Shown: piece after piece, positions 9,896-30,909 of the stretch
Numbering within the stretch: the first letter of the stretch is position 1
Layout: the number at the start of each line of letters is the position of its first letter
Sequence record: MW057918
DNA: 45,053 nucleotides
Reading direction: 5' to 3' (one strand)
Origin: Escherichia phage Msk
The notes under the pieces: model-generated
The model's input: only the letters and a program-made list of their open reading frames with translations
What the model was told of the DNA's origin: nothing
The model's database searches: none
Position numbers and translations under genes: made by a program

Positions 9896-9898
9896 ACT

Positions 9899-9922: not shown

Positions 9923-9934
9923 TTGGAGAAATAT

Positions 9935-10690: not shown

Positions 10691-10700
10691 GGGGGAGCAA

Positions 10701-11459
10701 ATGTTAACACCAAAAGTTAAGCTGCAAATATTCCAGCATGCAAAAGAAGTTTACCCGCACGAATGTTGCGGGGTTGTAACGCAGAAGGGCCGAGTCCAGA
10801 AATACCACAGAATCACCAATGCCAGTAAAGACCCAGAAAATGAGTTTATCCTTGATTCAAATGATTATTCTGATATCGCATTTGGCTTAGCTGACAATGA
10901 GTCAATTGTTTACGTAGTTCACTCCCACACGGGTGATGGAGTCACAACAAGACCTAGCCCAGCGGATATTTGCAGCTGCAACGAGTGTGAGATTCCTTAT
11001 GTTATCGTCAGCATTCCGGAGGGAGATATGCGCATCCTTGAGCCATCATCTATGCCACTGATTGGTCGCCCGTGGGGGCTTGGTAGCTTTGATTGCTGGG
11101 GGCTTGTGATGGAATTCCACAAGAAATACGGAGTAAAACTGAATGACTACCGCGTCAATTACCCGTGGTGGGAGAAACGGTACAATGAAAATATCTATGA
11201 CGACAACTGGATTAAGGAAGGATTTGAGCTGGTAAAAACTTCAGATATTCCTATTGGCTCGATGATTATGATGCAGGTGCAAAGCGAGGTGACAAACCAC
11301 GCAGGAATCTACATTGGCAATAACAGATTCATTCATCACCTTTATGGCAAAATGAGCTCCGTTGATATCTACTCCGATTACTGGCGAGAGCGCACAGTGC
11401 GAATCGTTCGCCATAAGGATTTACCAGAGGATGTAATTTATGACCCAGAAACTGATTGA
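10701..11459 (+). CDS. Tail tip assembly protein (lambda gpK-like; JAMM/MPN plus NlpC/P60-type domains)
   Basis: HSHTGDG...S..D JAMM-like motif and Cys/His-containing peptidase-like region; position. Confidence 0.6.
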   Translation: MLTPKVKLQIFQHAKEVYPHECCGVVTQKGRVQKYHRITNASKDPENEFILDSNDYSDIAFGLADNESIVYVVHSHTGDGVTTRPSPADICSCNECEIPYVIVSIPEGDMRILEPSSMPLIGRPWGLGSFDCWGLVMEFHKKYGVKLNDYRVNYPWWEKRYNENIYDDNWIKEGFELVKTSDIPIGSMIMMQVQSEVTNHAGIYIGNNRFIHHLYGKMSSVDIYSDYWRERTVRIVRHKDLPEDVIYDPETD

Positions 11460-12012
11460 TATTAAGTTAGGCTTGTCTCTAGGCCGCAAGTTTGGAAAGA
11501 TTCACCAGATGGCAGTGAATAGCGTGCCAGAGGCTATGCGAGCGCTTTGCTCTCAGATTCCTGCATTCAAGGAGTTCATGAGCAGCCACGTTGGGCAGAA
11601 CACAAGATACGCAGTCTTTGTAGATGGTAAAAATGTGAACGAGCATCGAATCTCTGATTTTAGTGCCGTTCAGGAGATACGCATCTTGCCAATCCCGCAA
11701 GGCAGAAAGTCCGGCGGTTTGTTTCAGACAATTTTAGGTGCAGCGCTTATCACGGTTGGCATCTTCACTGGGCAGATTTATCTTGTTGGTGCTGGCGTAT
11801 CTTTGGCAGCAGGTGGTATTGCCCAGCTACTCTCACCGCAGGCAACTGGATTAAAGACCCAGAACAACCAAACAAGCAACAGAGCATCTTACGCATTTGG
11901 CTCCGCTGTAAACACGGTGGCTGCTGGTTATCCTGTTTGCCTTCCTTACGGCTATCGGACGGTTGGAGGATCTGTGTTTAGTGCCGGCAGCTACGCTGAA
12001 GATAATGCTTAA
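11440..12012 (+). CDS. Tail assembly protein (lambda gpI-like)
   Basis: 190 aa, overlaps K-like gene, hydrophobic Gly/Ala-rich C-terminal half; position. Confidence 0.5.
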   Translation: MTQKLIDIKLGLSLGRKFGKIHQMAVNSVPEAMRALCSQIPAFKEFMSSHVGQNTRYAVFVDGKNVNEHRISDFSAVQEIRILPIPQGRKSGGLFQTILGAALITVGIFTGQIYLVGAGVSLAAGGIAQLLSPQATGLKTQNNQTSNRASYAFGSAVNTVAAGYPVCLPYGYRTVGGSVFSAGSYAEDNA

Positions 12013-12019
12013 ATATCAT

Positions 12020-12043
12020 ACCCGCCTAGTGCGGGTTTTTTAT
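12020..12043 (+). terminator. Hairpin with U-run between I-like and J-like genes
   Basis: cccgcctagtgcgggtttttt. Confidence 0.45.
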
Positions 12044-12053
12044 TTAGTGTAGA

Positions 12054-15000
12054 ATGGCACAAATGATCAAAACAAACATGAGGCTTTGTGATATGGCTGA
12101 AGATATTAAGATTTATGGTGCTAAAGGCGGCAGCCAGAAGCAGCATCAACCAGTGGAGCAGGAAGACAACCTGATTTCATTAAACAAGGTCAAGGTATTA
12201 CTTGCGGTTGCTGACGGCGAGGTTGACCCTAACTTCTCAATGAAAGATTTATACCTTGCTGACGTTCCGGTGCAAAACCAGGATGGTAGCTACAATTATG
12301 AGGGTGTTCGCGCTGAGTTCCGTGCTGGCACGCAGTATCAGGACTATATCGCCGGGCTTGACGGTGCTAACTCAGAGATTCAGGCATCCAGAGAAATCAA
12401 GAACGATACCCCGTACATCATTGCGGTTAACAATACTCAGCTTTCAGCAATTCGAGTTAAGCTATTCTGGCCTCGACTGGTCAAGCAAGAGAGCAACGGT
12501 GACCTGAACGGAACTACATGTGAGTATGCAATTGATCTTTCTGTTAATGGTGGCGCTTATCAGGAATATACTCGCGGAGTTGCTAACGGCAAGACCACTA
12601 CAGGTTACGACCGCAGCATTCGCGTGAACCTTCCGGCTGAATTTGATAGCGCACTGGTTCGCATCCGTAAGATCACACCAGACTCAACAAGTAGCACCCT
12701 GGTTAACGGAATGCAGATAACAACCTATCAGGAGGTAATCGACGCTAAATTCCGCTATCCGCTTACAGCCCTGGTTTATGTTGAGTTCGGCTCTGACCTT
12801 TTCCCTAACGGGATTCCAACAATCTCAATCAAGAAGAGATGGAAGCTGATTCAGGTCCCAACTAACTACGACCCTGAAACCAGAACTTACAGCGGGACAT
12901 GGAATGGCCTATTCAAAATGGCATGGTCAAACAACCCAGCGTGGGTTCTGTATGACTTAGTGACAAACCGCCGCTACGGTCTTGATCAGCGAGAGTTGGG
13001 TGTAGAGATTGATAAGTGGGGCCTGTATGAAGCCGCGCAATTCTGTGACCAGATGGTTCCTGATGGTAAGGGTGGAATGGAGCCGCGCTACCTGTGCGAC
13101 ATGGTTGTACAGAATAAAGTTGAGGCTTACACGCTAATTCGTGACATCTGCTCAATCTTCCGTGGCCTGACTTTCTATGACGGCGAAAAGATTGGTATTG
13201 TGGTTGATAAGCCACGCAACCCATCATACATCTTCACGAATGATAACGTTGTTAATGGATTGTTCAGCCGCACATTTGCCAGTGATAAGAGCCTTTACAC
13301 CACTGCAAACGTTCAGTTTGATGATGTTGAGAACAACTATCAGCAAGATGTTGAGCCTGTTTTTGAGCTCGAGGCCACTCGCCGATTCGGCTTCAATCCA
13401 GTCGACCTTACGGCAATCGGCTGCACTCGAAGAAGTGAAGCAAACAGACGCGGCAGATGGCTCCTAAAAACCAATCTGAGAAGCGAAACTATCAGCTTCA
13501 CCACTGGGTTGGAGGGCATGATTCCGATGATTGGCGAGGTGATTGCGGTCAATGATGCTGCATGGTCTAGCAACTATCAGCTAAACCTTTCCGGTCGTAT
13601 TGAATCAGTTCAGGGGTTGCAGGTTTTTACCCCGTTTAAAGTTGACGCAGCGCCAGGTGACAGAATTCTTCTGAACAAACCCGACGGAAGCCCTGAAGCA
13701 AGAACTATTGCCAGCATTTCGGAAGACGGTAGAACCATCAACCTGAACACGGCGTTCAGCTTTGTAGCTCAGCCTGATACTGTGTTCGCAATTGATAAGG
13801 ATAATCTGGCACTTCAGCAATATGTTGTGACCGGTATTCAAAAAGCAGATACTGATGGTAAGGACTCATTCCAGTATACGATTACTGCGGTAGAGTACGA
13901 CCCTAACAAGTATGACGAGATCGACTACGGCGTTAACATTGCTGACCGCCCGACTTCAATTGTAGAGCCTGACAGATTATCGCCACCAGAAAACCTGACG
14001 GTATCAAGCTACAGTAAGGTTGTTCAGGGTTTATCAGTTGAGACGATGGTTATCGGATGGGATAAGGCTCCATACGCAAAAACCTACAATGTTCAGTGGA
14101 GGAAAGAGAATGGCAACTGGATTAACGTACCAAGAACAGCTAGTACAGAGGTTGATATCGAAGGTATTTACGCAGGAATCTATGACGTTAGGGTTCGCAG
14201 CGTATCAGATACTGAAAACGTGTCTGCCTGGTCTGATATTGTAACGGTATCGCTAACTGGCAAGATTGGTCGCCCATCTGCGCCTACGGTTATCACGGCG
14301 TCAACTGATGAGGTATTTGGCATCCGTGTTAAATGGGGATTCCCTGATGGCTCTGGTGATACTGCTTACACTGAGCTTCAGCAGGTTCCTGATAATGGCG
14401 ATGGTACTTACAATCCTGATAACGCAAGCTTGCTGACGTTGCTGCCTTATCCAGCCTATGAATACTGGCATACTCCTATTCAGCCAGGTAAGGTTATCTG
14501 GTATCGCGCAAGATTGATTGACAGAATAGGTAATACGTCTGATTGGTCTAGTTTCGCAAGAGGCATGAGTACTGACGACGAAAACATTATCAATGATTAC
14601 ATCAAAGTTGATATTGAAGGCTCAGAAGGATTCAAATACCTCGAGCAGAATGCGATTCAAAAGAATCAGGACATTCAGAACCAGGCAGAATCAATTCTTG
14701 AGAACGCATTAGCTAATGACACTGATGTTCGTCGCATGACTAAGGAGAACGGCAAACGTAAGGCTGAATATGTTCAGGCTGTTAATCTCATAGCCGATGA
14801 GACTCAGGCGCGTGTAGAGGCTCTCGCAGCTCTTAAAGCGCAGATAGATGATGAAGTTGTAGCATCGATTACAGAAGTTCAGACAGCGCTAGCCACCGAG
14901 ACAGAAGCAAGGACTACTGCAGACACGGCTCTATCAGCAAGATTGGGTGATAACGAGGCGGCACTAAACCAGAAACTGGATGCTTTCTCTAATGCCACAT

Positions 15001-15479
15001 CCACTGGTGTGCAGTACGGAATTAGTCTTGGCCTTAAATACAATGGACAGACTTATTCATCCGGCATGAGTATGGAGCTTGTTGGCACTGGTGGTAATGT
15101 TCGCAGTCAGTTCATCTTTGACGCAAACAGATTCGCAATCAGTAATGGTATTGGTTCTGGCTCCGGTCAATGGCAGCTCCCCTTCGTTGTCGAGAACGGA
15201 AACGTAATGATCCAAAGCGCAGTAATCGGAGATGGCTCAATTACTAACGCGAAGATTGGTAACAGGATTCAATCTAACAGCTACGTTCCTGGCTCTCAAG
15301 GATGGGCGATTGACAAGTCAGGAAGTGCGGAATTTAGTAACGCCACTGTAATGGGTAACCTGTATGCCAATAATGGTAACTTCGCATTTAACGGAACCAA
15401 TAACACGGTTCAGATTAACAATAACGGAATCACTGTAAACTTACCGAACGGAGGAAGAGTGGTAGTTGGAGTGTGGTAA
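12054..15479 (+). CDS. Central tail fiber / host specificity protein (lambda gpJ-like)
   Basis: 1141-aa ORF at end of tail cluster; size and position match gpJ. Confidence 0.75.
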   Translation: MAQMIKTNMRLCDMAEDIKIYGAKGGSQKQHQPVEQEDNLISLNKVKVLLAVADGEVDPNFSMKDLYLADVPVQNQDGSYNYEGVRAEFRAGTQYQDYIAGLDGANSEIQASREIKNDTPYIIAVNNTQLSAIRVKLFWPRLVKQESNGDLNGTTCEYAIDLSVNGGAYQEYTRGVANGKTTTGYDRSIRVNLPAEFDSALVRIRKITPDSTSSTLVNGMQITTYQEVIDAKFRYPLTALVYVEFGSDLFPNGIPTISIKKRWKLIQVPTNYDPETRTYSGTWNGLFKMAWSNNPAWVLYDLVTNRRYGLDQRELGVEIDKWGLYEAAQFCDQMVPDGKGGMEPRYLCDMVVQNKVEAYTLIRDICSIFRGLTFYDGEKIGIVVDKPRNPSYIFTNDNVVNGLFSRTFASDKSLYTTANVQFDDVENNYQQDVEPVFELEATRRFGFNPVDLTAIGCTRRSEANRRGRWLLKTNLRSETISFTTGLEGMIPMIGEVIAVNDAAWSSNYQLNLSGRIESVQGLQVFTPFKVDAAPGDRILLNKPDGSPEARTIASISEDGRTINLNTAFSFVAQPDTVFAIDKDNLALQQYVVTGIQKADTDGKDSFQYTITAVEYDPNKYDEIDYGVNIADRPTSIVEPDRLSPPENLTVSSYSKVVQGLSVETMVIGWDKAPYAKTYNVQWRKENGNWINVPRTASTEVDIEGIYAGIYDVRVRSVSDTENVSAWSDIVTVSLTGKIGRPSAPTVITASTDEVFGIRVKWGFPDGSGDTAYTELQQVPDNGDGTYNPDNASLLTLLPYPAYEYWHTPIQPGKVIWYRARLIDRIGNTSDWSSFARGMSTDDENIINDYIKVDIEGSEGFKYLEQNAIQKNQDIQNQAESILENALANDTDVRRMTKENGKRKAEYVQAVNLIADETQARVEALAALKAQIDDEVVASITEVQTALATETEARTTADTALSARLGDNEAALNQKLDAFSNATSTGVQYGISLGLKYNGQTYSSGMSMELVGTGGNVRSQFIFDANRFAISNGIGSGSGQWQLPFVVENGNVMIQSAVIGDGSITNAKIGNRIQSNSYVPGSQGWAIDKSGSAEFSNATVMGNLYANNGNFAFNGTNNTVQINNNGITVNLPNGGRVVVGVW

Positions 15480-15483: not shown

Positions 15484-15512
15484 TAAAGCCCCTTAATTGG
15501 GGCTTTTCTTTT
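15484..15512. terminator. Bidirectional rho-independent terminator between convergent genes
   Basis: aagccccttaattggggctttt with A-run upstream and T-run downstream. Confidence 0.6.
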
Positions 15513-16482
15513 AGTAGAAGTTTGGAATGAATGGAAGTTCCATTGATATGTTCGTGTCGAAAGGAAACCGAGCGCCTGATTGCGTCGAGTAGTTACCAAT
15601 TACAGAGCCAGGAACAGCCCTAACAGAGCCTCCAGACATGCAGACCCCCTTGTACCTTAAGTTGTTATAACCTCCAGTAACTCTAGTCGTAGCGCCGCAT
15701 CTAAGCAGCGGGAAGAATCCACCATTTATTGACTGGTATCCATTATTGATCTGAATGAATCCACCAAGAACAAATGGGCGGCGAACACTTGAAAAAACAA
15801 TCTGACCAGAACTATTCGACATTGTTAGTCCTGGTCCGGCTGGTGGGGGTTCATTTCTGAATATCACCAACTGAACATAAGTACTTGCCGCAATATCATC
15901 TGTACCTCCGTAGGTTATATCCCTACACCATATTGTTGATCCATCTGATTCAAGTGATACGTTTGGATTATCCCACTTGCCGAATGGTATGCCGCTAACT
16001 GGTAGCGATGCCGCCCTGTTAACCTGTATTCCTCCAACCCATGCTGCTGACATTAGTCTAGAGTTGCTTGATATAGCAAGGAAATCAGTTGAGTTTTCAA
16101 CGAGTATCCCTGGGCTTGATGAAGATGATGCTGGTAGAATTTCAAAGCAATTCCCAGCAAAGTCAATTATTCGACCTTTAGCACCATTGAAGTTGCTGAG
16201 CGTTATCCTACCAGTGCCGTCATTTACCTTTTGAAACCCGTTCATGTAATAAACTTCGGGTATAACATCATAAGCGTCAACGTGGACTGCCTTCGTTGGT
16301 ATGCAGAAAGCCGTAGAACCGGGGGACATTGTCAATCCAAAATCCCACGAACTTGCTGGGGTTGAAAGTCCATTGGTATTTATTGATCCAGTCACAGCAG
16401 GCGCCCTTAATCCTGCCGTTATTTCCATCGCTGGTCTTCCGTCATTGAGGTCAATCAATATACCCTGCGGCATTATTTCCAC
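15511..16482 (-). CDS. Putative receptor-binding / tail fibre-like protein (Gly/Ser/Thr/Asn-rich)
   Basis: 323-aa beta-rich composition; convergent with J-like gene; cotranscribed with and overlapping the lipoprotein gene by 10 nt. Confidence 0.35.
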
Positions 16483-16756: not shown

Positions 16757-16800
16757 GTATCGCATCCTTGCGATCAGTGTTTAGCAATTCGTGCTATTTA
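16757..16800 (-). promoter_or_regulatory. Motif-class promoter (TAAATAGCACGAATTGCTAA, 22 bp, TACTAT) for lipoprotein operon
   Basis: Perfect motif on minus strand at 16781-16800, hexamer 22 bp downstream, conserved leader ccatcgaaacga. Confidence 0.5.
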
Positions 16801-17511: not shown

Positions 17512-17553
17512 TACAGCCGCCGCTGCGGAATGTCTTTAGCTATTCGTGCTATT
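17512..17553 (-). promoter_or_regulatory. Motif-class promoter (variant AATAGCACGAATAGCTAA) for methyltransferase gene
   Basis: Variant motif at 17536-17553 on minus strand, tattat about 23 bp downstream. Confidence 0.4.
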
Positions 17554-17610: not shown

Positions 17611-17706
17611 ACGCGCTGTTACGCCAATTTACGCATTAGTTACATTGAAATATCTATATATATCAACCTTTTACTCTTATTATTATTATTATACATATTA
17701 CTGTGT
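17611..17706. repeat. AT-rich intergenic block with (TTA)n microsatellite; homologous to 36971-37073
   Basis: tatctatatatatcaacc...ttattattattatta shared with second locus; several GTATAC palindromes nearby. Confidence 0.6.
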
Positions 17707-17947
17707 ATATCATGTAACTACTTCTATAGAGCGTTCCGGTTATAATTTTAATATCATGTGGATTTATACAGTATTGCGTGGCAGCTATACTAATGCACCC
17801 CCTGCAAGAAACGGTATACACGATATACACGATGGTTACATTTAGCTATAGCTGGGATGAGATGCCATTTTACGTAACAAGTGGCAATGCCTACACGGAA
17901 TTACAATGATTCGCACGTAAACTTAAATCAACGATTGGCAAAACCAA

Positions 17948-18212: not shown

Positions 18213-19178
18213 ATGAGCTTTAAAGTTTTTACGAGAAATGAGCTAAGCAACGAGGCTTACCACTCTGAGACTGATCACATCTCAGGATCCTCACTTGTCG
18301 AGATTATTCAGGGTTCACCAGCCAAGTGGAAATTCAAGCAGCGCAATAGCGATAGCAAGGCTCTTAAGTTTGGCACCCTAAGCCACACGATGATTTTAGA
18401 GCAAGATGTATTTGATAAAGAATACCTTCGAGCTACAGACCTTGACGCGATTGAAGGATTAATTACAAGCCAGGCTGGACTGTCGGCAGCACTTAAAAAA
18501 AATGGCGTGGCTGGCACGTCCGGGAAGGGCTGTAGCGAGCTCGTGGAGATGATGTACAGCTCTGGCGAGGATTGGCCTGTTAAATGGCTAATTGAGCAGC
18601 AGGAGAGCGCTCAAGCGCTTGTGGAGGGTAAGGAGCTAGTTAGTGCCGCTGACTACGATAAAGTTGTGGCTATGCGTGAGGTTCTTTGCAATATACCGGC
18701 ATATAATGCAATCGTGAATAGTGAGACAGCACAAAAAGAGCTATCAATATTCGGTGAGATTCTTGGTGTCGGCGTGAAGATTCGAATTGACCACGTTGAC
18801 GTTGTTGATGGGGTGGTAATGATCAACGATTATAAAACTACCGCAGACGCAAGCCCGGAAGGGTTTGGTAAATCGGCATTCTCGCACGGATATCTTGCAA
18901 AAATGGCATTGCAGCGAGATCTGTTTGTGAAGGCATTTAACGAGAAGCGCAAGGTTGTTGTGGGATTACTGGCACAGGAGAAGGTAGAGCCATACTTGCC
19001 AATGCGATACACGCTAACAGATGAACAGCTACGAATCGGTAGATTGCAGTATCTTGAGGCGCTTGCCACTTACAAGAAGTGCAAGGAGCTTGATATCTGG
19101 CCTGGCTACTCAAATGGCATTACAGAGCAAGAGCTATTGGTTCCTGAGTGGGCATTAAAACAATACAAAGAAATCTAA
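18213..19178 (+). CDS. PD-(D/E)xK family exonuclease (recombination exonuclease)
   Basis: IDHVD...MINDYKT nuclease motif; followed by annealing protein and SSB. Confidence 0.65.
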   Translation: MSFKVFTRNELSNEAYHSETDHISGSSLVEIIQGSPAKWKFKQRNSDSKALKFGTLSHTMILEQDVFDKEYLRATDLDAIEGLITSQAGLSAALKKNGVAGTSGKGCSELVEMMYSSGEDWPVKWLIEQQESAQALVEGKELVSAADYDKVVAMREVLCNIPAYNAIVNSETAQKELSIFGEILGVGVKIRIDHVDVVDGVVMINDYKTTADASPEGFGKSAFSHGYLAKMALQRDLFVKAFNEKRKVVVGLLAQEKVEPYLPMRYTLTDEQLRIGRLQYLEALATYKKCKELDIWPGYSNGITEQELLVPEWALKQYKEI

Positions 19179-19222
19179 ATAGCACTAATTGCTAAAAACA
19201 AAATTGAAAGATTGGGTATGAT
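19177..19222 (+). promoter_or_regulatory. Motif-class promoter (AAATAGCACTAATTGCTAAA, 22 bp, TATGAT)
   Basis: Motif overlaps exonuclease stop codon; hexamer at 19217-19222; leader taccacatcaacaacgaacgagg. Confidence 0.45.
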
Positions 19223-19403: not shown

Positions 19404-20053
19404 TGCAAATTTCAGAGTCATGCAAATCAATTTTAAACGCGCTGCACACTGCTAAATCGCTATTCGCAAAGGCTGAAAAGTCTAAGCAGAACTCACACCT
19501 TAAGAATAAATACGCTACCCTAGAAGACGTTTTGGCGGCCGTTGAGCCTGGACTTGATGAGTGCGGATTGGTGATGTTCCAGAGTGTGCTTGATGATGAA
19601 CAAACTAATCGCATGAAGGTTGAGACAAAGCTATTTCACGCAGAGTCAGGAGAATGGGTTAGCTTCTTGATGATTGTACCAATCAGTAAGAATGATGCGC
19701 AAGGTTACGGCTCAGCTTTAACATACGCTCGACGCTACGGAATCACGGCAGCTTTAGGTCTTAGCCAGGCGGATGATGATGGTAATCTAGCAGCTAAAGG
19801 TGTTAAAGACTTTAAGAGAGAACTCGAGAAATGCAATAATCTAGATGAGCTTCGTAATGTATGGAAAGAAGCCAAGCAATCACTTGATGCGGCAGGATGG
19901 AAGGTTTTTGAGCCTCACATTATCGAGAGAAAAGCAGAAATCGAAGCAAATGCGATGACTGGCTTTAACCCAGCAACACCAAAGAAAGTTGCAGAAAAAA
20001 GTAGTCCTGAAGAAAAGATTAAAGTAGAATCACAACAAATCGACACGTTCTAA
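19403..20053 (+). CDS. Single-strand annealing protein, ERF-like
   Basis: GYGSALTYARRYG segment and placement between exonuclease and SSB; family assignment from memory of motif only. Confidence 0.45.
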   Translation: MQISESCKSILNALHTAKSLFAKAEKSKQNSHLKNKYATLEDVLAAVEPGLDECGLVMFQSVLDDEQTNRMKVETKLFHAESGEWVSFLMIVPISKNDAQGYGSALTYARRYGITAALGLSQADDDGNLAAKGVKDFKRELEKCNNLDELRNVWKEAKQSLDAAGWKVFEPHIIERKAEIEANAMTGFNPATPKKVAEKSSPEEKIKVESQQIDTF

Positions 20054-20094
20054 ATTTAACGGGGCTTCGGCCCCAACAATAGAGAGATAAAAAC

Positions 20095-20529
20095 ATGCAC
20101 GTAATTACCGGTCAGATTCGCCGCGCTCCGTTCACCAAAGAAGGTCAAAACGCCAATGGTAACTGGAAGATGTTTGCGGTTGATTTGAGTGAGAGATACA
20201 AGGATAAAGATGGTCAAACTCAGTACACAAACTACCGCGCAGTACTTTTCGCCAAAGAGTCGATGCTGGATTGGTATAACGAAGCATTTCAGGAAGGTAA
20301 AGTTGTCAGCCTAAGCGCCGAGAGTTTGTCGGTTGATGTTCGCGATAAAGATGGCAAGACTTACGTTACAGTTAATATGAATAATCCTCGACTGGAATTT
20401 AGTCAGCGAGGTGATTCAGCGACACAACAGCAGATGCAAAACCAACAGCGTCAGCAACAGAAGCAGCAGCAACAACAGCGACAACAGCCACAACAGCAAA
20501 GTCAATTTGACGACGACATTCCTTTTTGA
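20095..20529 (+). CDS. ssb: Single-stranded DNA-binding protein
   Basis: OB-fold-sized N-terminal domain, Q-rich linker, canonical acidic C-terminal tail DDDIPF. Confidence 0.85.
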   Translation: MHVITGQIRRAPFTKEGQNANGNWKMFAVDLSERYKDKDGQTQYTNYRAVLFAKESMLDWYNEAFQEGKVVSLSAESLSVDVRDKDGKTYVTVNMNNPRLEFSQRGDSATQQQMQNQQRQQQKQQQQQRQQPQQQSQFDDDIPF

Positions 20530-20539
20530 TGTAAAATAT

Positions 20540-20566
20540 AAAGCCCCTTTCGGGGCTTTTTTATTT
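20540..20566. terminator. Bidirectional rho-independent terminator (ssb operon / tailspike)
   Basis: aaagcccctttcggggctttttt flanked by A-run and T-run. Confidence 0.7.
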
Positions 20567-23015
20567 AATAAATTTTTACATCTGGAGAAATTCCAACGCA
20601 AGTCCAGCGCGAGAACTTGGCATCATAAACGAATGACATTCCAATTTGTCTCCCCTCAGATGGAGTTGTGAATGAGCCAACTCTAAACTTATTGCTAAAT
20701 GAAACGGATGGACGCCGGCCGCCTGAAAGGTTGTAAATTATGAAGTCTATCCTCTGTGCATCTCTTGCGTTATCCTGAACATCAATAACTACAGGACTTG
20801 AATCAATTACAACGGTTGCAAGACTTGTTCTTAGTGGGTTAAATAGAATACTACCACCAGATAGCTGAACCCTTTTTTGAACGGGGTTAGAAGAATCCGT
20901 GTACAACCCTGTGTTTATATTATACAAAGCCTCCCATGAATTCAGTTTTGAGTCATCAATCACTGTTGCATACTGCCCAAATAGTATAGTCCCTTCTACA
21001 TGGTTTCCTGAAGCTCCATTATAAAAATCAAAACCAGAAGCTGATCCACCAACAAACCTATTAGCTCTAGCTCCGTTAACTTGAATTGATGGAGACTGAA
21101 AACCTGACTTCAGGCCATTGAACAAGTTTCCTGTCGCCGTCTTCCTAAGAACGACGTCACCACCAGAGTTGACCTCAAGGTCGCAACCAATAACAGTGTT
21201 AGTTACTGCTGTTATGCCTAGGTCTGACTCATGACCGAAAGAAAACCCATACTTATTTCCCTCGCTGGTTCCACCAATAAATGTCGTATTACTGCAGAAT
21301 GTAGCCTCAATTCCTGATTCTGTTACATGCTCGCAAGTTGGGTTAATAAAAAGATCTGCAGATGTGCCGCGGAAGTTCACAGCGCCAGCCTCTGCGTCAA
21401 TTAATATGCCGTACGTAGGCGTCGTTGTGAAGGTCTCAACGTTACCAGAGCACACAAAGTTATTATGCACGCATAGCTGAGTCCACCAGCAGTGTAAACC
21501 AGCCCTTCTAATGTTCGTAGCCATTAGGTTGTCAAAGCATGATGATATGACACCCCTTAATGAAAAGCCATCACTAGCATACCCATTCCCATCGACAATG
21601 ATGTTGCTCATATATGAGTTGTATGCCCAATAATCTAGGTTTACATCCCTATGATCCATTTGGATGACGTAATCATGAGGTCCGCTAGTTAGTGAGATTC
21701 TTGCGCCTTTCTCACCGATAATTGTTGCTGGCCTCAGAAAGTTTAATGGCTGAGATGTAAGATAATTACCTTTAGGAATATGTATAGCAATAGCGTTGTT
21801 TCTAGATGCCTCAACAGCGGCAAGCAATGCCTGAGTATCATCTGTTACACCATCACCAACAGCGCCAAAGTCCTTCTTAATATCGACATGAGTAAGTAAA
21901 GCGTTTACCTCTGGCTTTGAGTAAACATCAAGATTTGTTCTTGCTGCTGACTTATTTGCAACATCAGAGAAATTCAATGATTTTTGAAAAGTCTCATTTT
22001 TTGAATAAACATCAAGATTTGTTCTTGCTGCTGACTTATTTGCAACATCAGAGAAATTCAATGATTTTTGAAAAGTCTCATTTTTTGAATAAACATCAAG
22101 TAAGTTTCTAGCCCTCGATGCCGTAGCTCCACCTCCGGACTTGCCAGCCTCAACCATCACCATTTCCCTACCTGGTGCATAAACCCTGCTTCCGGGCGCT
22201 CCCACAAACTGAATGTAAATCTCCCTGCTATACTGGTTGCTTGTTGAAGATTGGCCTACAACTCGCAAGGAGTGCGTGGTTGTATTGCTTGACTTTGATA
22301 TTACCTGAATGCATAAAGCAGCAATTGATGTTCCAAATGTTGAGATTATGTCATTTGGAGCATTTATCATTGATGAAACGTTAACCATATAAAGGCCACC
22401 GGATTTAAAAACAAATTCCTGCCAATCAAAATTGCTTATCAATGGCGTAGTGTCTGTCGCCAATCCATATCCGGCAAGAGTTACCAACGTTCCGGCATCC
22501 CCGGCGTTATTAATTGCTTTAATCGTCTGATCTCTTGCTGCAGTGGTCGTGTCTCTTGCACTAATAGCAGTAGCGGCGCTCTCTTCGGCAGCAATCTGGC
22601 TAGCAAGAGCCTCAGCAGCTCCAGTGGTGGATTGTTTTGCAAGCTGCTCGAAGAGAGGCCAGTCGAAAGTGTCTTGACCAATAAATTGCAACAATCCTTC
22701 GATTGATGTCTCCTTTGACTGGTAGTAACGCAAAGTCTCTGCTACATCCTGAGCCAACCCCTGAACGGTAATTCCATCGTGCGCAAGAATTGCATAACCA
22801 GTTCCGGAAGGAACAGTTTCAGAGTTAGGGTTGTAAACATTAATCTGAGTATCGCTGATGATTTCAGAGATGGTATAAATCTTCAGGGGGCTGGTTTTAA
22901 AAATAATGGTTGCACCTACGCGAATAAGTGTAAGCGGTGCTTTCCATGTTGTACCCACGCCAGTTACCTCGCCATTTGCGGCCAGCGACGCTGTTCCTAA
23001 GTCATAAATTGCCAT
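20565..23015 (-). CDS. Tailspike with pectate-lyase-type beta-helix (putative polysaccharide depolymerase)
   Basis: ATG at 23015 with GGAGAA SD; DFGAVGDGVTDDTQAL signature of pectate_lyase_3-type tailspikes; internal perfect 28-aa tandem repeat. Confidence 0.7.
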   Translation of the reverse strand: MAIYDLGTASLAANGEVTGVGTTWKAPLTLIRVGATIIFKTSPLKIYTISEIISDTQINVYNPNSETVPSGTGYAILAHDGITVQGLAQDVAETLRYYQSKETSIEGLLQFIGQDTFDWPLFEQLAKQSTTGAAEALASQIAAEESAATAISARDTTTAARDQTIKAINNAGDAGTLVTLAGYGLATDTTPLISNFDWQEFVFKSGGLYMVNVSSMINAPNDIISTFGTSIAALCIQVISKSSNTTTHSLRVVGQSSTSNQYSREIYIQFVGAPGSRVYAPGREMVMVEAGKSGGGATASRARNLLDVYSKNETFQKSLNFSDVANKSAARTNLDVYSKNETFQKSLNFSDVANKSAARTNLDVYSKPEVNALLTHVDIKKDFGAVGDGVTDDTQALLAAVEASRNNAIAIHIPKGNYLTSQPLNFLRPATIIGEKGARISLTSGPHDYVIQMDHRDVNLDYWAYNSYMSNIIVDGNGYASDGFSLRGVISSCFDNLMATNIRRAGLHCWWTQLCVHNNFVCSGNVETFTTTPTYGILIDAEAGAVNFRGTSADLFINPTCEHVTESGIEATFCSNTTFIGGTSEGNKYGFSFGHESDLGITAVTNTVIGCDLEVNSGGDVVLRKTATGNLFNGLKSGFQSPSIQVNGARANRFVGGSASGFDFYNGASGNHVEGTILFGQYATVIDDSKLNSWEALYNINTGLYTDSSNPVQKRVQLSGGSILFNPLRTSLATVVIDSSPVVIDVQDNARDAQRIDFIIYNLSGGRRPSVSFSNKFRVGSFTTPSEGRQIGMSFVYDAKFSRWTCVGISPDVKIY
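21923..22100. repeat. Perfect 84-bp tandem duplication (2 copies plus 10-bp partial) inside tailspike coding sequence
   Basis: Identical 84-bp units at 21923-22006 and 22007-22090 seen directly. Confidence 0.85.
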
Positions 23016-23036
23016 TGTGTAAATTCTCCATTTGTA

Positions 23037-23055
23037 AAATAGCACGAATTGCTAA
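23037..23055. promoter_or_regulatory. Motif copy (AAATAGCACGAATTGCTAA) 22 bp upstream of tailspike start codon
   Basis: Motif lies between a TACAAT hexamer and the tailspike SD on the minus strand; lacks the usual downstream hexamer/leader. Confidence 0.35.
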
Positions 23056-23079
23056 GTTGGATTGTAGCATCTTTCAGGC

Positions 23080-23106
23080 ATAAAAAAAACCTCCCAAAGG
23101 AGGTTA
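23080..23106 (-). terminator. Rho-independent terminator after primase gene
   Basis: minus strand reads acctcctttgggaggtttttttt. Confidence 0.65.
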
Positions 23107-24030
23107 GTCTATTAATTCGCTTGCTTTGTATATTCGCTTTCTTATGCCAGACTTGAAAAAATTATCATCATTTGGCATTACAACATCAAGATTGCGATCA
23201 TCAGCAACGGCAAGTAAATCAAAAGAGTGGCGAGTACAAGCGACGCGTAACTTGTAGTTTCTAAGCGCATAAGCAACCATTTCCATGTTGTAGCTGGAGT
23301 GGCAAACAAGCACGCAGCGGTTGCCACTAGCAAGATGAACGCGAACACCATCAATCCAATTATCGACCAGATAAGCGTACTCACTATCCTTAAAGGCACC
23401 AATAACAGCCACAGATTGGCGAGTATAATCTTTTGCAGCATAACTAACATCTCCCTCTTCATTTATAAAAATTACATTGCACATCTCATCTGACACGCCG
23501 TCACTATAAGCCATAAAGCACGGCACTGCGTGTATTAGTTCACCAGATTTAGCCCTACCAACATCAAAGCCGAACTCGCTATAGATACCCTCGTATATAC
23601 TGAGTGGAGTTGATTCTACTCTTTCCGTCCTTCCCATTATCTCTAAGCATCTTTCGTGGTCAATCTGAGCGCCCATTTTGTATGGTGATGTTCTTGAAGC
23701 TCTTTTGTTTGCTTTTGATATAACCTCTACTGGAACTAGATTCAGCCAATCACCAAGCGTATCTATTGTTTCACTATAACTCATTCCGGAACACTTCATT
23801 ACCCAACCAACACCAGAATCATTTCCGCACTGGTTGCATATTGCTGCGCCATTTCCCTTTTCCTGACCTAACTCATCAGTGAAGCGAAACCTATCCCTTC
23901 CAAAGCAGTAAGGGCACGGACCATGTTTCTTGCTGAGATTCTCCTTTGTCCATCCAAGGTGCGATGAGTAGAAATCACTCCACATTCCCTTCATTTTTGC
24001 TATCACTTCGTTCTTATCATGGTGACTCAT
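23104..24030 (-). CDS. Putative DNA primase (zinc-binding motif plus TOPRIM-like region)
   Basis: ATG at 24030 with GGAGGT SD; CPYCFG...CNQCG zinc-ribbon-like motif; acidic D-rich TOPRIM-like C-terminal half. Confidence 0.45.
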   Translation of the reverse strand: MSHHDKNEVIAKMKGMWSDFYSSHLGWTKENLSKKHGPCPYCFGRDRFRFTDELGQEKGNGAAICNQCGNDSGVGWVMKCSGMSYSETIDTLGDWLNLVPVEVISKANKRASRTSPYKMGAQIDHERCLEIMGRTERVESTPLSIYEGIYSEFGFDVGRAKSGELIHAVPCFMAYSDGVSDEMCNVIFINEEGDVSYAAKDYTRQSVAVIGAFKDSEYAYLVDNWIDGVRVHLASGNRCVLVCHSSYNMEMVAYALRNYKLRVACTRHSFDLLAVADDRNLDVVMPNDDNFFKSGIRKRIYKASELID

Positions 24031-24062
24031 AGTTACCTCCATAAACAATAAATGCACTATAC

Positions 24063-24102
24063 ACAATGTATAGCGCCACTGTTTATCAATTCGTGCTATT
24101 TC
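24063..24102 (-). promoter_or_regulatory. Motif-class promoter (variant AAATAGCACGAATTGATAAA, 22 bp, TATAGT) for primase
   Basis: Motif at 24086-24102 minus strand, hexamer 22 bp downstream. Confidence 0.4.
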
Positions 24103-24578
24103 CCTTGCTCTTTAGCTTTTCGCGCTGCCTCGTTAGCGGCCTTAATCTTGCGCCATGATCGACACTCTGTCTTGGTGGCTAATTCAGCCTCAGTAACAAC
24201 ACGCAGCATGTGACGCTTTTTGCAACGAAGAGTTAGCGGCTTCCCGTTACCGTCGAATTGCAAATCTGGTCGGCAGAATGTGGCGCGAAAACCTTCTCCA
24301 TTTCGCTTGTAGTAGTTGTGCGACAGCTGGGCGCCACGTGCCGATATCATGCCGCGCTTAAACCATTGTTCTACAGCCTGTGGTGTTACCTTTAACTGCT
24401 TTGCGATATTCGCCTTTGTGCCGAAGAAATCAAGAACTATCTCCAGGCGTGCCCGTAACCCTGCTCTTACTTCATCCTTTAAAACGTAGTAACCTGAAGG
24501 TCGTTTACGTTGCTTTTTGTCTTCAGTGCGGATAGTTCCGTTGTTGCCGTTAATGGTTCTCTTGTCGACTGTATTCAT
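24096..24578 (-). CDS. Putative HTH DNA-binding regulator (Cro/YdaS-like) with basic C-terminus
   Basis: TKANIAKQLKVTPQAVEQWFKRG helix-turn-helix-like segment; divergent from helicase gene. Confidence 0.45.
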   Translation of the reverse strand: MNTVDKRTINGNNGTIRTEDKKQRKRPSGYYVLKDEVRAGLRARLEIVLDFFGTKANIAKQLKVTPQAVEQWFKRGMISARGAQLSHNYYKRNGEGFRATFCRPDLQFDGNGKPLTLRCKKRHMLRVVTEAELATKTECRSWRKIKAANEAARKAKEQGK

Positions 24579-24679
24579 CTTATTACCTCAATAGCATTTT
24601 TTGTTAAAAGTAATTCTGATTTGATGTTAGTATTGTACTTAATTGAACGCTACAAGACAATTTTTATAGGAGTTTAGAT

Positions 24680-26674
24680 ATGTTGCCTATCGAGAAGCTG
24701 GTTGCAAACTTCGATAAAGAAAGAATCAAGCAGATTCAGAAAGATTACCAGTTTGGCGAGATAACCCCTTACGAATTCCAGTGCGTTACATTTGACGTAA
24801 TTGGGAAGGCTATTGGCAAGTACGAAGCGCCATTTATCGCAGACCTTTCCGTATCGGCTGGTAAGACAATCATTCTTGCTATGATTGGAAAGCGAATGGA
24901 GCAGCTTGGTCTTCCTTATATGGTTCTCTCTCGCCAGTCAGAGATAATCAGCCAGAACTCAGAAGAGCTTCGTAATTTCGGGATCCGTAACAGCGTATAT
25001 TGCGCTGGCCTTAACGTTAAATCAGTTTACTACCCAACCATAGTTGCTAGCGAAGGAACTGCGGCTAATGGCTTATTTAAGGGGCTTGGTGACTATGTTC
25101 CTGCCGTTATAGCTATAGATGAATGTCACATGCTTGATACCATAGATATTGTGGAAGCCGAAGAGAATGAAGAAACATTTGAGCAAATGAGCACAAAGAA
25201 GGGCGAGATGGTTTTTAAGGATGGCGTTAATACTGGATTGCTTGGTACTGGTCGTGCGCAGTACACGCTAATAATCACTGAGATGAAGCGTCGCTGCCGT
25301 GAAAAATACGGGCGGGAGCTTCGTATATTCGGCCTTACTGGTAGCCCTTATCGAAACAATGACCATATCGTCGTCAGCAATCCAAACATCCGTGGGTTCT
25401 GGCGAAAAGCTGTGATTCATGTTCCAACAAATTACCTTGTTGATTTGGGATTCGTGGTTCCTACTGTTTATGGCGAGGTTGGCGATTTAGGTTATGACCT
25501 TAGCGAGTTTGTTCCAGACGGTAGTGATGGCGTGAAAGACTTTAGCAGAAAAGAAATGGATGCAATGGTCGCAAAGATTCACGACAACCAAACCATGACA
25601 CAAAAGATAATGCAGTTTGTCGTCAAAATACTGGAGACTCGCAACGCCGCATTGGTCACCTGCGCCGGAAAACTCCATTGCAGCGAAGCGGCTTCCGCAC
25701 TGCCTGACGGATACCCTTACGCTATTATCACCGATTCTACCGGAGAGAGGAAGCGCAGAGAGATTCTTGCAGATTGCCAGACTGGAAAGTACAAGATTAT
25801 CTTTCAGATTGGATGTCTAACCACGGGTGTAAACCAACCGCTGTGGGATACTAGCGTCATACTACGCAAGATTGGCAGTCTAACCTTAATGATTCAGCTT
25901 CTTGGTCGTGGCATGCGAAAACTAAAAAAGGCGCACATAGATGCTGGGTTCAAGAAGGAGGACCACTTGGTATTAGACTTTGCCGGAGCGCTTGATGACA
26001 TGGCAGAGCTTTACTTTGACCCGATAATTGAAGAGATTCAGGCTGAAAAGTTTAAAACATCAAGGAGGAGTGGTGATGAGGTTCGCCAGTGTCCGCAGTG
26101 TGGATATGATAACTCGCCATTTGCTCGACGCTGTAGCAATAAGATTAATGGCGTTAGATGCGATCACTTTTTCCAGTTCACAACATGTGAGGATATTACC
26201 GACCAACAAACAAAGGCGGTAATCAAGAAAGGTTGTGGAACTAAAAATGACATAGCAGCAAAAGTTTGTCGTGAATGCGGAGAAATGCTTAAAGACCCAA
26301 ACGCTAACCTGACTGGAAAGATGTATCGTCGCGGAGACTATTTGCGTGTTTATGACTTCCAGGTTGGATTAAGCAAAAATAAAACTGGTATAGTAGTTAA
26401 GTATAATATCATGGCGCACAACGGAGAGAGGTTTAACGCGTGGGAGTTCTTTAACCCAGAATCAGACCATAGGGTTTGTAGTGTGCTTTGGAAAAACTTT
26501 TGCCTTGCTCACATTGAAAATCGCGCTGAAGCAGCACGGATTGGTAAAATTCGTAACGCAAAAATGATTATGATGAATGTAGATAAATTCCGTGCTCCAG
26601 TGCAAGTTACACACAGGAAGAACGGAAAGGGGAAGGATGTGATCGCATACAAGAATTTTGGAGAATTGAAATGA
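24680..26674 (+). CDS. SF2 helicase (DExH-box) with C-terminal Cys-rich zinc-finger-like region
   Basis: Walker A VSAGKT, DECH box, later helicase-C-like region, multiple CxxC pairs. Confidence 0.7.
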   Translation: MLPIEKLVANFDKERIKQIQKDYQFGEITPYEFQCVTFDVIGKAIGKYEAPFIADLSVSAGKTIILAMIGKRMEQLGLPYMVLSRQSEIISQNSEELRNFGIRNSVYCAGLNVKSVYYPTIVASEGTAANGLFKGLGDYVPAVIAIDECHMLDTIDIVEAEENEETFEQMSTKKGEMVFKDGVNTGLLGTGRAQYTLIITEMKRRCREKYGRELRIFGLTGSPYRNNDHIVVSNPNIRGFWRKAVIHVPTNYLVDLGFVVPTVYGEVGDLGYDLSEFVPDGSDGVKDFSRKEMDAMVAKIHDNQTMTQKIMQFVVKILETRNAALVTCAGKLHCSEAASALPDGYPYAIITDSTGERKRREILADCQTGKYKIIFQIGCLTTGVNQPLWDTSVILRKIGSLTLMIQLLGRGMRKLKKAHIDAGFKKEDHLVLDFAGALDDMAELYFDPIIEEIQAEKFKTSRRSGDEVRQCPQCGYDNSPFARRCSNKINGVRCDHFFQFTTCEDITDQQTKAVIKKGCGTKNDIAAKVCRECGEMLKDPNANLTGKMYRRGDYLRVYDFQVGLSKNKTGIVVKYNIMAHNGERFNAWEFFNPESDHRVCSVLWKNFCLAHIENRAEAARIGKIRNAKMIMMNVDKFRAPVQVTHRKNGKGKDVIAYKNFGELK

Positions 26675-27090
26675 ATATTACAGACAAAGTTGATTACATT
26701 GAGTTTTACCCGGGCCCGGTTAAGTCATGTCCTAAAGAGGATGACGAACAAATCTTTTGTTCTGATTGGGTTAAGTATAACTACCCGGATATGGTATTTT
26801 TCCACTGCGTGAATGAGGGTAAGAAAACCATTGGTCAAGCAAGAAAGGACCAGGCTAAAGGATTGCTTAAAGGGGTTTCGGACTGCTTATTCCTTATACC
26901 TGAATCACTGCGAGGCAAATACCCATTTGGCGCTATAGAGCTAAAGAGAGCAGGTAAAACGCAAGCTAGCCCAGTTAGCGATGAGCAGAAGTCATTCCTA
27001 AAAAGCGTAAGAGAATCAGGTGGCTTCTCCGCAGTAGCCTATGGCAGAGGTGGCTTTCTTGCAGCATTCGCAGAGATGATTCGAAAATAG
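26671..27090 (+). CDS. VRR-NUC domain nuclease
   Basis: GAIELKRAGKTQASPVSDEQKSFL pattern typical of VRR-NUC; overlaps helicase stop. Confidence 0.6.
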   Translation: MNITDKVDYIEFYPGPVKSCPKEDDEQIFCSDWVKYNYPDMVFFHCVNEGKKTIGQARKDQAKGLLKGVSDCLFLIPESLRGKYPFGAIELKRAGKTQASPVSDEQKSFLKSVRESGGFSAVAYGRGGFLAAFAEMIRK

Positions 27091-27133
27091 CACGAATTGC
27101 TAAAGACGAATCGGTGAGGTGGTGTATTATCAA
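27085..27133 (+). promoter_or_regulatory. Motif-class promoter copy 1 of duplicated block
   Basis: aaatagcacgaattgctaaag, 22 bp, tattat, leader catcgaaacgaaa. Confidence 0.45.
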
Positions 27134-27166
27134 CTCATCGAAACGAAACACTCACAAAAAAGGTGA

Positions 27167-27266
27167 GAAGTTGCAAACGTAGGCCGGAGCAACGAAAGAC
27201 GTTTCAAAATATGATGTGACAAACCCATGAGAAAGGAAGTTGCAAACGTAGGCCGGAGCAACGAAA
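27167..27266. repeat. Two direct copies of 31-bp element gaagttgcaaacgtaggccggagcaacgaaa (27167-27197, 27236-27266)
   Basis: Exact direct repeat 69 bp apart in a non-coding region; contains gttgc/gcaac inverted repeat. Confidence 0.8.
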
Positions 27267-27294
27267 ATCACATCATAATAAATTATAACTTAGT

Positions 27295-27343
27295 AAATAG
27301 CACGAATTGCTAAAGAGGAATCGGTGAGGTGGTGTATTATCAC
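27295..27343 (+). promoter_or_regulatory. Motif-class promoter copy 2 of duplicated block, driving 27377
   Basis: Near-identical to 27085-27150 (aaatagcacgaattgctaaag...tattatca...catcgaaacga). Confidence 0.5.
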
Positions 27344-27376
27344 TTCATCGAAACGAGACGCAGAGAGAGAAATAAA

Positions 27377-30325: not shown

Positions 30326-30879
30326 AAATGACTAAATTATTTATCCTTAATGGCCCAGCTGGAGTTGGCAAGGACACTATAGCGGATATGATGGTTGAGA
30401 CTGGTGTCGCAAAAGAAAAGGTATCATTCAAGTCACCAATATTTAGAGTTGCAAAAGGAATGCTATCAAGCGATGAATTTGATGAATTCATCAAGAATTA
30501 CGACAATAGAGACTATAAGGAATCACCTCATAGATTTCTTGTCGGTATGACAGTTCGTGAATTTATGATTTGGATTAGCGAGTCTGTAATGAAGCCAGCC
30601 TTTGGTGATGATGTTTTCGGTAAAAGGCTAGCGCAGTCACTTGGTGATGGCTGCTACATTTGCGCTGACGGTGGATTTGCTAGCGAGATTAAGCCACTGA
30701 TCGACGCTGGTGTTGAGGTCACGTTAATCAGATTGCATAGGGCAGGGTACACATTTGATGGCGATAGTCGCTCATACATTCACGGGGTGTGCGCAAGAGA
30801 AATTGATGTTCGTGTTGTTGATTGTGATATTAATGGAACATCAGCATTGGTAAGGCACGTAATAAATAGCACAAATTGA
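30322..30879 (+). CDS. P-loop kinase, deoxynucleoside-monophosphate-kinase-like
   Basis: Walker A NGPAGVGKDTIAD resembles T4 gp1 dNMP kinase P-loop SGVKRSGKDTTAD; 4-nt overlap with HAD gene. Confidence 0.45.
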   Translation: MKMTKLFILNGPAGVGKDTIADMMVETGVAKEKVSFKSPIFRVAKGMLSSDEFDEFIKNYDNRDYKESPHRFLVGMTVREFMIWISESVMKPAFGDDVFGKRLAQSLGDGCYICADGGFASEIKPLIDAGVEVTLIRLHRAGYTFDGDSRSYIHGVCAREIDVRVVDCDINGTSALVRHVINSTN

Positions 30880-30909
30880 TAAAGATAATAATAAAAACTT
30901 AGTTATCAT
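30864..30909 (+). promoter_or_regulatory. Motif-class promoter (variant AAATAGCACAAATTGATAAAG, 22 bp, TATCAT)
   Basis: Variant motif overlapping kinase stop; leader acatcgaaacgag. Confidence 0.4.

Follow-up and report, generated by a model that had tools for sequence, protein, structure and literature searches.

A tailspike form of the T1-like lateral tail fibre gene in Escherichia phage Msk: conserved locus, exchangeable C-terminal module and an inverted repeat copy at the candidate promoter

Introduction

The closest described counterpart of the gene examined here is the lateral tail fibre locus of the Drexlerviridae, known from T1 gp26 and from the BASEL phages. The gene itself is a tailspike gene of Escherichia phage Msk (MSK; record MW057918), a T1-like siphophage of the subfamily Braunvirinae, and the window analysed is the whole genome of 45,053 nucleotides (nt), in rotated form. 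The two have in common the site between the exo/erf/ssb and primase/helicase genes, the strand, the terminator and a conserved 5′ end; the locus had already been described with its flanks and the 5′ end of the gene conserved and the remainder variable (Maffei et al., 2021, S1B Fig). They differ in what is encoded: T1 gp26 is a fibre resembling those of HK97 and HK022, and PeterMerian has three genes at the locus, whereas MSK has a single gene for a β-helix tailspike, without separate chaperone genes.

Other relatives share one part of the protein or the other. The Webervirus depolymerases Depo32 (GH-K3), DpK2 (PDB 7VYV, 7VZ3, 7LZJ) and depoKP36 (KP36) have a homologous N-terminal anchor and neck, the same plan of anchor, neck, β-helix and C-terminal domain, and a gene beside ssb. 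They differ from the MSK spike in that the β-helix is unrelated in sequence (12% identity in Foldseek), the substrates are capsules, the exo-erf-ssb block is inverted with the gene facing gpJ, and the upstream repeat described below is absent. Tailspike protein 2 (TSP2) of the Kuttervirus phages PhiSH19, SPTD1, SE14 and PM10 instead resembles the C-terminal ~460 amino acids (aa), with 60-62% identity over the full length; its N-terminus serves a branched myovirus TSP complex, unlike the siphovirus tail anchor of MSK, and there is no similarity at the DNA level. The only functional evidence on this module family comes from SPTD1, where the module has been proven to determine host range for Citrobacter sedlakii and to be transferable: grafting the SPTD1 TSP2 C-terminus on CBA120 gave plating on that host, and swapping the native TSP2 C-terminus of SPTD1 for that of Det7 abolished it (PMC9965104). 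Exchange among P22-like, T7-like and Ackermannviridae tailspikes (Det7 TSP3/P22, CUS-3/K1F) likewise places one module behind several unrelated anchors, with junctions at short conserved linker motifs. The MSK case does not differ from these in principle: its module is carried by the P22 head-binding domain (PF09008), the T7 N-terminus (PF03906), the Kuttervirus TSP2 head and the Drexlerviridae anchor.

A further known element is the repeat of T1-like phages. In phage TLS it is a 21-nt direct repeat, aaATAGCACnnnTTGnTAAAA, present in 21 copies and found also in T1, Rtp and Rogue1; the repeats point along transcription, about 76 nt before start codons, and their function is listed as an open question (Kropinski et al., 2024). 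MSK has the identical sequence in many intergenic copies, most of them along transcription. According to the TLS paper every copy is co-directional, with no exception mentioned, whereas the copy at the MSK tailspike gene is inverted and lies downstream of a −10 element.

The analysis reported here indicates that the MSK gene is very probably the T1-like lateral tail fibre gene in tailspike form, at its ancestral locus, with an exchangeable C-terminal module and a promoter of its own. The locus is a trait of the family, recorded as early as the annotation of the T1 genome, and the protein is a new combination of a known kind. What is newly added is minor: the exact boundaries of the cassette, the spread of the module across phage families, the copy-number polymorphism of the linker and the conserved inverted repeat at the promoter.

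Conservation of the tail fibre locus

The tailspike gene lies on the minus strand between ssb (20095-20529, plus strand) and the primase gene (23104-24030, minus strand; Zn-ribbon primase domain), far from the tail genes at 4812-15479; on this the initial annotation and the coordinates agree. The longest open reading frame (ORF), 20565..23045, begins at a GTG at 23045. This start was dropped for the ATG at 23015 because a GGAGA ribosome-binding site precedes the latter, because all homologues open with MAIY or MALY, and because the record of the closest match, Escherichia phage vB_ecoS_OzMSK (OzMSK; PQ659294, 45,053 bp), has the same start. The tailspike region of OzMSK is 99.8% identical to that of MSK.

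In T1, gp29 (exoVIII), gp28 (Erf) and gp27 (ssb) on the plus strand are followed by terminators, then by gp26 (tail fibre), gp24 (primase) and gp23 (regulator) on the minus strand, and then by gp22 (helicase) on the plus strand. The order and strands of MSK are those of T1, PeterMerian (Tempevirinae), 2006III, BEK6, G8 and FP (Braunvirinae) and a metagenomic relative (L012). Using an alignment of the N-terminal domain, 80 relative loci were gathered from IMG/VR (a single-protein query gave 7). About 58 of the 80 have the T1-type order. Some 19-22 follow the KP36/Webervirus order, with exo-erf-ssb inverted as a block and the fibre gene after ssb on the same strand, facing gpJ; two loci are odd. 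The tail fibre gene adjoins ssb in nearly all loci with enough flanking sequence, and in none is it inside the tail operon. Because the MSK gene is co-directional with the primase and regulator genes, it is not on an odd strand. The ssb-primase site on the primase strand is the ancestral position in the Drexlerviridae and no insertion.

Protein architecture and predicted fold

The protein consists of an anchor and neck, a middle domain, a linker and a C-terminal β-helix module (Table 1), and two tail PHROGs match it, over aa 1-334 and aa 381-812 (E down to 6e-178). The anchor is family-wide. Residues 1-182 match the N-terminus of the Klebsiella depolymerase Depo32/DpK2 (PDB 7VYV, 7LZJ) in phmmer with E 5e-35, and tblastn with the first 300 aa finds matches in 900 phage records, mostly of Klebsiella and Escherichia Drexlerviridae, in genes annotated as tail fibre, lateral tail fibre or depolymerase. 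N-terminal identity is 47-48% to PeterMerian and KP36 (47% for KP36), 49% to T1 and 66-69% to the Braunvirinae relatives. The middle domain is found only in some Braunvirinae relatives, 2006III, BEK6, G8 and FP among them, and it is missing from a 662-aa protein (P0001) that has the MSK-type C-terminal module.

The C-terminal module is a right-handed β-helix. PF12708 (pectate-lyase-like) matches aa 381-455 (E 4e-12, 46.8 bits against a cut-off of 27), and the AlphaFold2 monomer model, built from a 42-sequence alignment, is an all-beta solenoid with a predicted local distance difference test score (pLDDT) above 90 over aa 374-816. Foldseek matches it with probability 1.0 to the spikes Sf6, CBA120 TSP2/3, phi29 gp12, K5A lyase and Depo32; further matches are AS12 gp42, HK620, and polysaccharide lyases and epimerases. 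The term depolymerase-type tailspike, which the initial annotation had chosen, is a fair one for the fold. The PADLOC defence models gave no match to the protein.

Exchange of the C-terminal module

What varies between relatives is the part of the gene that follows the linker. The proteins of 2006III, BEK6, G8 and FP align with MSK over aa 1-~342 at 66-69% identity, and in 2006III, BEK6 and FP divergence sets in right after a shared NLDVYSK motif. At the DNA level, homology with these four phages runs from the helicase gene into the tailspike gene, as far as 22465-22567, and returns as an island of ~100 bp with 85-95% identity over the linker unit (22103-21910), despite unrelated C-terminal modules. 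It is absent from 21910 to 20572 and comes back at 20560-20572, with the terminator and ssb. This pattern in DNA and protein defines the exchangeable cassette as the stretch from the linker to the stop codon and the bidirectional terminator, rather than the whole gene. Clustering of 72 complete homologues agrees: there is a single cluster for the N-terminal 110 aa but 40 for the C-terminal 350 aa, among which that of MSK is a singleton. Modular exchange of the host-range determinant, as proposed in the initial annotation, is therefore borne out for the part after aa ~356 and not for the gene or locus as a whole.

The MSK module itself is widely distributed. It is 92-93% identical in P0001, which comes from another Braunvirinae-like phage with a matching locus (L012). 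There the module lies in one contiguous alignment of 88.4% identity with ssb and erf, and aa ~100-358 are unrelated; in that comparison, then, the module shares the age of the backbone, and the replaced part is the shaft. Outside the family, identity is 60-70% to Kuttervirus TSP2 and related proteins (60% for PhiSH19, 62% for SPTD1, 70% for the metagenomic P0002), 65% to a module behind a T7-type tail-fibre N-terminus, 42-47% behind P22 head-binding domains, 42% in the tailspike of siphophage hz69, and 42-46% in chromosomal proteins of E. coli and Citrobacter (P0009, P0012, P0017, P0019 and P0020), which are presumably prophage-encoded. Similarity to PhiSH19 TSP2 starts at aa 356 of MSK and aa 257 of TSP2, with none before. 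Since only the receptor-binding module is shared, the MSK protein is no member of the Kuttervirus TSP2 family.

Duplication in the linker

The linker contains an 84-bp tandem repeat, detected by Tandem Repeats Finder (TRF) with 99% matches and encoding the 28-aa unit NLDVYSKNETFQKSLNFSDVANKSAART. The region has a GC content of 30%, and the AlphaFold2 monomer has pLDDT below 50 there. Copy number varies among close relatives: a metagenomic contig (L013) that is 97.8% identical to MSK over the primase gene and the first 520 codons of the tailspike gene has exactly one 84-bp unit fewer, and the linker of P0001 has a single unit. (L013 departs from MSK after 21456, 33 nt before the contig end, which is likely an assembly artefact.) According to the OzMSK paper, all raw contigs broke in the tailspike gene and PCR products were variable, which its authors blamed on internal repeats. 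The duplication is a recent in-frame length change in the neck, at the 5′ recombination boundary, and probably an unstable one.

Candidate promoter and inverted repeat copy

A terminator of the primase gene lies 72 nt upstream of the ATG, so the tailspike gene needs a promoter of its own. Its hairpin (−11.3 kcal/mol) is followed by an 8-T run at 23082-23089 (plus-strand numbering), where OzMSK has one base fewer. From the terminator towards the gene, the upstream region consists of the terminator, ATGCCTGAAAGA, TGcTACAAT, CCAAC, TTAGCAATTCGTGCTATTT, TACAAAT, GGAGA, ATTTACACA and the ATG. The extended −10 TGcTACAAT is the only candidate promoter in this sequence; the bases upstream of it are the terminator T-run, without a −35 element. 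A motif TGnTAnAAT occurs at this site in the Braunvirinae, in T1 (TGaTAAAAT) and in most T1-type IMG/VR loci, and PeterMerian has TGcTATTCT. The TTAGCAATTCGTGCTATTT that follows is an inverted copy of the T1-family repeat. It starts 5 nt after the −10 and occupies roughly positions +1 to +19 relative to the candidate promoter, which leaves 21 nt to the ATG; the initial annotation, which had noted TACAAT followed by a motif copy, was right on this arrangement but gave the gap as 22.

The repeat is far more frequent in the genome than expected by chance. Its core TAGCA-N5-TGCTA (at most one mismatch) occurs 18 times against 1.7 expected, and 0 of 100 shuffles reach 18. Among the 12 strong MSK copies, 11 are co-directional and the tailspike copy alone is inverted and alone downstream of a −10. 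The 11 have a fixed layout of AAATAGCACGAATTGCTA, 22 nt, TATnAT and TACCaCATCGAAAC, followed on reading the sequence by a ribosome-binding site and start codon in 10 of the 11, and they precede the operon of the tip receptor-binding protein, the methylase gene, erf/ssb, the primase gene, the lysis genes and several blocks of small genes. The centre of the palindrome in these copies is near −42, which is the position of an activator site or promoter element. The tailspike copy fails this usual geometry (co-directional, ~22 nt before TATnAT, ~76 nt before the start codon), and its own arrangement is conserved: 42 of 58 T1-type loci, but 0 of 19 KP36-type loci, have a repeat core in the 70 nt upstream of the tail fibre gene, and in the T1-type loci the upstream core is always inverted, never forward, and 5-12 nt after the −10.

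An operator is the best available reading of the tailspike copy, suggested by this geometry and conservation. That the copy is a real operator, at which the factor recognising the repeat near −42 at ~11 promoters would repress or time the tail fibre gene, is put forward only tentatively, as less likely than not. A plausible candidate for the binding protein would be a Cro-like helix-turn-helix regulator encoded two genes upstream (24096-24578, minus strand), whose match to PF14549 (E 7e-7) is just under the Pfam threshold. A degenerate copy of the repeat, TAGCATTTTTTGTTA, occurs at 24592-24606, between a σ70-like promoter (TTGTCT-17-TACAAT, 24632-24660) and the ATG of the regulator gene. It is placed downstream of the promoter as at the tailspike gene, and may point to autoregulation.

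Proposed function and alternative explanations

The sequence and models together suggest the following mechanism. The protein would act as a trimeric tailspike, as inferred from solved trimeric homologues, with the first ~180 residues anchoring it to the tail and the C-terminal β-helix binding, and probably cleaving, a surface polysaccharide, most likely O-antigen. The spike would provide reversible primary adsorption before a separate tip protein (15511-16473) engages LptD (a step taken from the OzMSK record annotation and the OzMSK paper), and would probably be dispensable on rough laboratory hosts (K-12, B and C, for example). Specificity is envisaged to evolve by homologous recombination that replaces the module between the ~100-bp linker (NLDVYSK...) and the stop codon and terminator, within a module family that also serves Kuttervirus TSP2, T7-like, P22-like and other tailspikes; the 84-bp linker duplication is a recent length polymorphism at the module junction. 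Expression would come from the gene's own extended −10, without a −35 and just past the primase terminator, with the inverted repeat over the start site: an element that may serve as activator site or promoter element near −42 at 11 other sites would here be placed as an operator.

Several points weigh against parts of this proposal. The virion evidence for the spike in the MSK paper is band-size matching in sodium dodecyl sulphate-polyacrylamide gel electrophoresis only, and the literature searched contained neither activity or halo data for MSK or OzMSK nor a transcriptome, transcription start or timing data for any T1-like phage. At 60-62% identity the specificity of the Kuttervirus homologue is not transferable to MSK; judging by this sequence divergence, the two specificities probably differ. 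As the counts for T1-type and KP36-type loci (42/58 and 0/19) show, a repeat upstream of the gene is not obligatory. It is also awkward as a timing model that the activator-independent promoter of a structural gene should be repressed by the factor of other promoters.

Two alternatives concern the gene and its product. To the initial annotation the layout had suggested horizontal acquisition, or else modular exchange, of an opposite-strand cassette inside the replication module. The gene is indeed convergent with ssb and far from the tail operon, its C-terminal module is a singleton among the 72 sampled relatives, and its GC content at third codon positions (GC3), 36.1% against 45.1 ± 5.3, is about 1.7 standard deviations low and at the low end of the genome. 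However, position, strand, terminators and promoter region are alike in T1 and every T1-type relative examined, the layout being common to T1, five Braunvirinae relatives and ~58 of the 80 IMG/VR loci; the anchor is family-wide, the gene runs with primase and regulator, and in the L012 comparison the C-terminal module is contiguous with ssb and erf at backbone-level identity. Composition, for which the N-terminal, linker and C-terminal parts were compared with 25 other genes, gives no sign of foreign origin either: overall the gene is not atypical in GC (42.8% against 45.6 ± 2.8 for other genes of at least 150 aa), GC3 or codon score, with overall GC and codon use within one standard deviation, although the power of such a comparison is low, donor phages from shared hosts being similar in composition. 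Synteny refutes a foreign cassette for the locus, and recent acquisition of the whole gene is left with next to no probability. In the second alternative the product is a non-enzymatic receptor-binding fibre, whose β-helix binds a glycan or protein without depolymerising it. The Foldseek matches of the C-terminal module are weak (10-18% identity, template modelling scores of 0.3-0.47) and include non-enzymatic adhesins such as PfbA, and the activity and halo data that would speak to the point were among those not found in the literature searched. On the other side, 42 homologues, some with as little as 25% identity, all keep six acidic residues (D475, E527, E585, D612, E614 and D620, with a D612-x-E614...D620 cluster among them), a pattern typical of tailspike glycosidase catalytic sites, even if no solved close homologue defines the active site; the PF12708 match is above threshold; and the homologous Ackermannviridae TSP family is generally enzymatic. 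A purely binding fibre is, on balance, unlikely, if by no means negligible.

Two more concern the repeat copy in front of the gene. It could act as RNA, as a 5′-terminal hairpin that stabilises the mRNA or modulates translation, with no DNA operator involved: the two 5-bp arms of the core pair perfectly and would sit close to the transcript's 5′ end or right at it, with 21-24 nt to go to the ATG, and among relatives its distance to the −10 varies (5-12 nt) while its closeness to the ribosome-binding site is kept. But the predicted hairpin is unremarkable (−3.8 kcal/mol, z −0.3; 60 of 200 shuffles fold as well or better), the loop and flank bases are as conserved as the stem, and the other copies, placed a constant 22 nt upstream of a −10, would not be transcribed, so that they are more likely recognised as DNA. 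A role as RNA is accordingly given only a small chance. The same sequence (23036-23055) could also be a forward promoter element on the plus strand, driving an antisense RNA into the primase gene, since the plus-strand copy matches 19 of 19 positions in the orientation of the other 11 promoters. This is highly improbable: there is no −10 at the needed spacing (GGCATA at 22 nt and CATAAA at 24 nt are both without the final T), the conserved CATCGAAAC start region is missing, the plus strands of T1 and PeterMerian are likewise without a −10 at that spacing, and no plus-strand ORF or Rfam match follows. A scan of 20000-24800 against Rfam with E up to 0.1 gave no match, and a literature search for the motif string returned chance primer matches only. 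A σ54 site (TGGCACG-N4-TTGCW) was rejected, with the GG/GC spacing 2 nt short and GG replaced by AG.

The locus has some research value on the regulatory side: the conserved inverted copy contrasts with the 11 co-directional copies and makes the function of the repeat testable. If the operator reading is true, it would be the first functional handle on a repeat whose function the TLS authors leave open, and would imply a dual activator/repressor switch conserved over the T1-type Drexlerviridae (42/58 loci). The spread of the module over Drexlerviridae, Kuttervirus, T7-like and P22-like phages and prophages is one more case of tailspike domain shuffling. The MSK module, linker and terminator boundary mark out a natural site for cassette exchange, through which T1-like phages could be directed at O-antigens of choice, though the practical value is modest.

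Table 1. Features of the tailspike locus and repeat copies in the MSK window (aa, amino acids; TRF, Tandem Repeats Finder)
Feature	Position	Strand	Basis and remarks
Lateral tail fibre/tailspike gene, 816 aa	20565..23015	−	ORF and translation; MSK_000019, homologue of OzMSK XLM52761
N-terminal anchor and helical neck, aa 1-182, family-wide	22470..23015	−	phmmer, tblastn, clustering
Middle domain, aa 183-304, only in some Braunvirinae relatives	22104..22469	−	alignments to 2006III, BEK6, G8, FP
84-bp tandem repeat, 2.2 copies, in the linker (aa 305-372)	21916..22100	−	TRF; 5′ boundary of the exchangeable module
Right-handed β-helix receptor-binding, presumed glycan-cleaving module and C-terminal domain, aa 373-816	20568..21899	−	AlphaFold2, Foldseek
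Bidirectional intrinsic terminator of convergent ssb and tailspike genes	20540..20559	both	folding; 3′ boundary of the exchangeable module
Ribosome-binding site GGAGA, 9 nt before ATG	23025..23029	−	sequence; OzMSK annotation
Inverted copy of the 19-21-nt T1-family repeat, TTAGCAATTCGTGCTATTT	23037..23055	−	core palindrome TAGCA-N5-TGCTA at 23040-23054
Candidate extended −10 TGcTACAAT, without −35	23061..23069	−	sequence; TACAAT at 23066..23061
Primase terminator hairpin, overlapping the primase stop codon	23088..23105	−	folding; kept in relatives
Co-directional repeat copies	16778-16796, 17533-17551, 19176-19194, 24080-24098, 27084-27102, 27294-27312, 30863-30881, 35853-35871, 36693-36711, 38621-38639, 39667-39685		

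Terminators and the ssb gene

Both flanking terminators named in the initial annotation are present, at slightly corrected coordinates (Table 1). The hairpin between ssb and the tailspike gene folds at −15.0 kcal/mol on the plus strand and −14.4 on the minus strand (z −3.5 and −4.5); its T-run is good on the plus strand and weaker on the minus strand. T1 has annotated terminators on both strands at the corresponding site after ssb. The product of the ssb gene, named SSB in the OzMSK record, ends in DDDIPF, the canonical C-terminal tip. A 9-bp tandem repeat (CAACAGCAA x5) at 20455-20499 encodes a Q-rich stretch before this acidic tail.

Differences between MSK and OzMSK

Over the 36.2 kb of PQ659294 that were compared, MSK and OzMSK differ by eight substitutions (at 1463, 1466, 14826, 20574, 20972, 22030, 36544 and 36715) and one single-base indel (at 23082). 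The OzMSK paper counts 9 nt separating OzMSK from MSK, whose record of equal length (MW057918) is unverified; the pair represents a contaminant that recurs in laboratories. All six coding differences are nonsynonymous and are confined to three virion-surface genes that make up ~14% of the genome: those for the decoration protein, the gpJ-like fibre (A925T) and the tailspike (A329E, Y682H and K814N). This clustering suggests that adsorption proteins have been under selection or that one record contains errors. In MSK the substitutions at 1463 and 1466 give the capsid decoration gene (1248-1757, plus strand) a premature stop (…KSQ* at 1464-1466); the OzMSK decoration protein is unbroken at 169 aa and reads …KSHYETP…. 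Either the unverified MSK record contains a sequencing error here or the nonsense allele is genuine.

Other features of the genome and its relatives

Some intergenic sequences of MSK occur twice. A promoter region with the T1-family repeat is duplicated at 27080-27149 and 27290-27359 (70 nt, 91% identical, 210 bp apart), and between these lies a 45-nt repeat at 27167-27211 and 27236-27280 (87% identical, 69 bp apart). Two intergenic pairs, of 101 nt (17616-17716 and 36965-37065) and 45 nt (17812-17856 and 37180-37224), are 78-80% identical, lie ~19.35 kb apart and sit near divergent promoter regions.

In the T1 locus (L011) the gene for gp25 (2792-2935) overlaps the start of gp26 (696-2882). 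A T1 ATG behind AAGGAG and the repeat opens the frame MALYRRGTASMD…, which is the conserved N-terminus (read to 43 codons). The T1 annotation thus splits the start of the tail fibre gene, and the small gp25 ORF may be an artefact of this early annotation.

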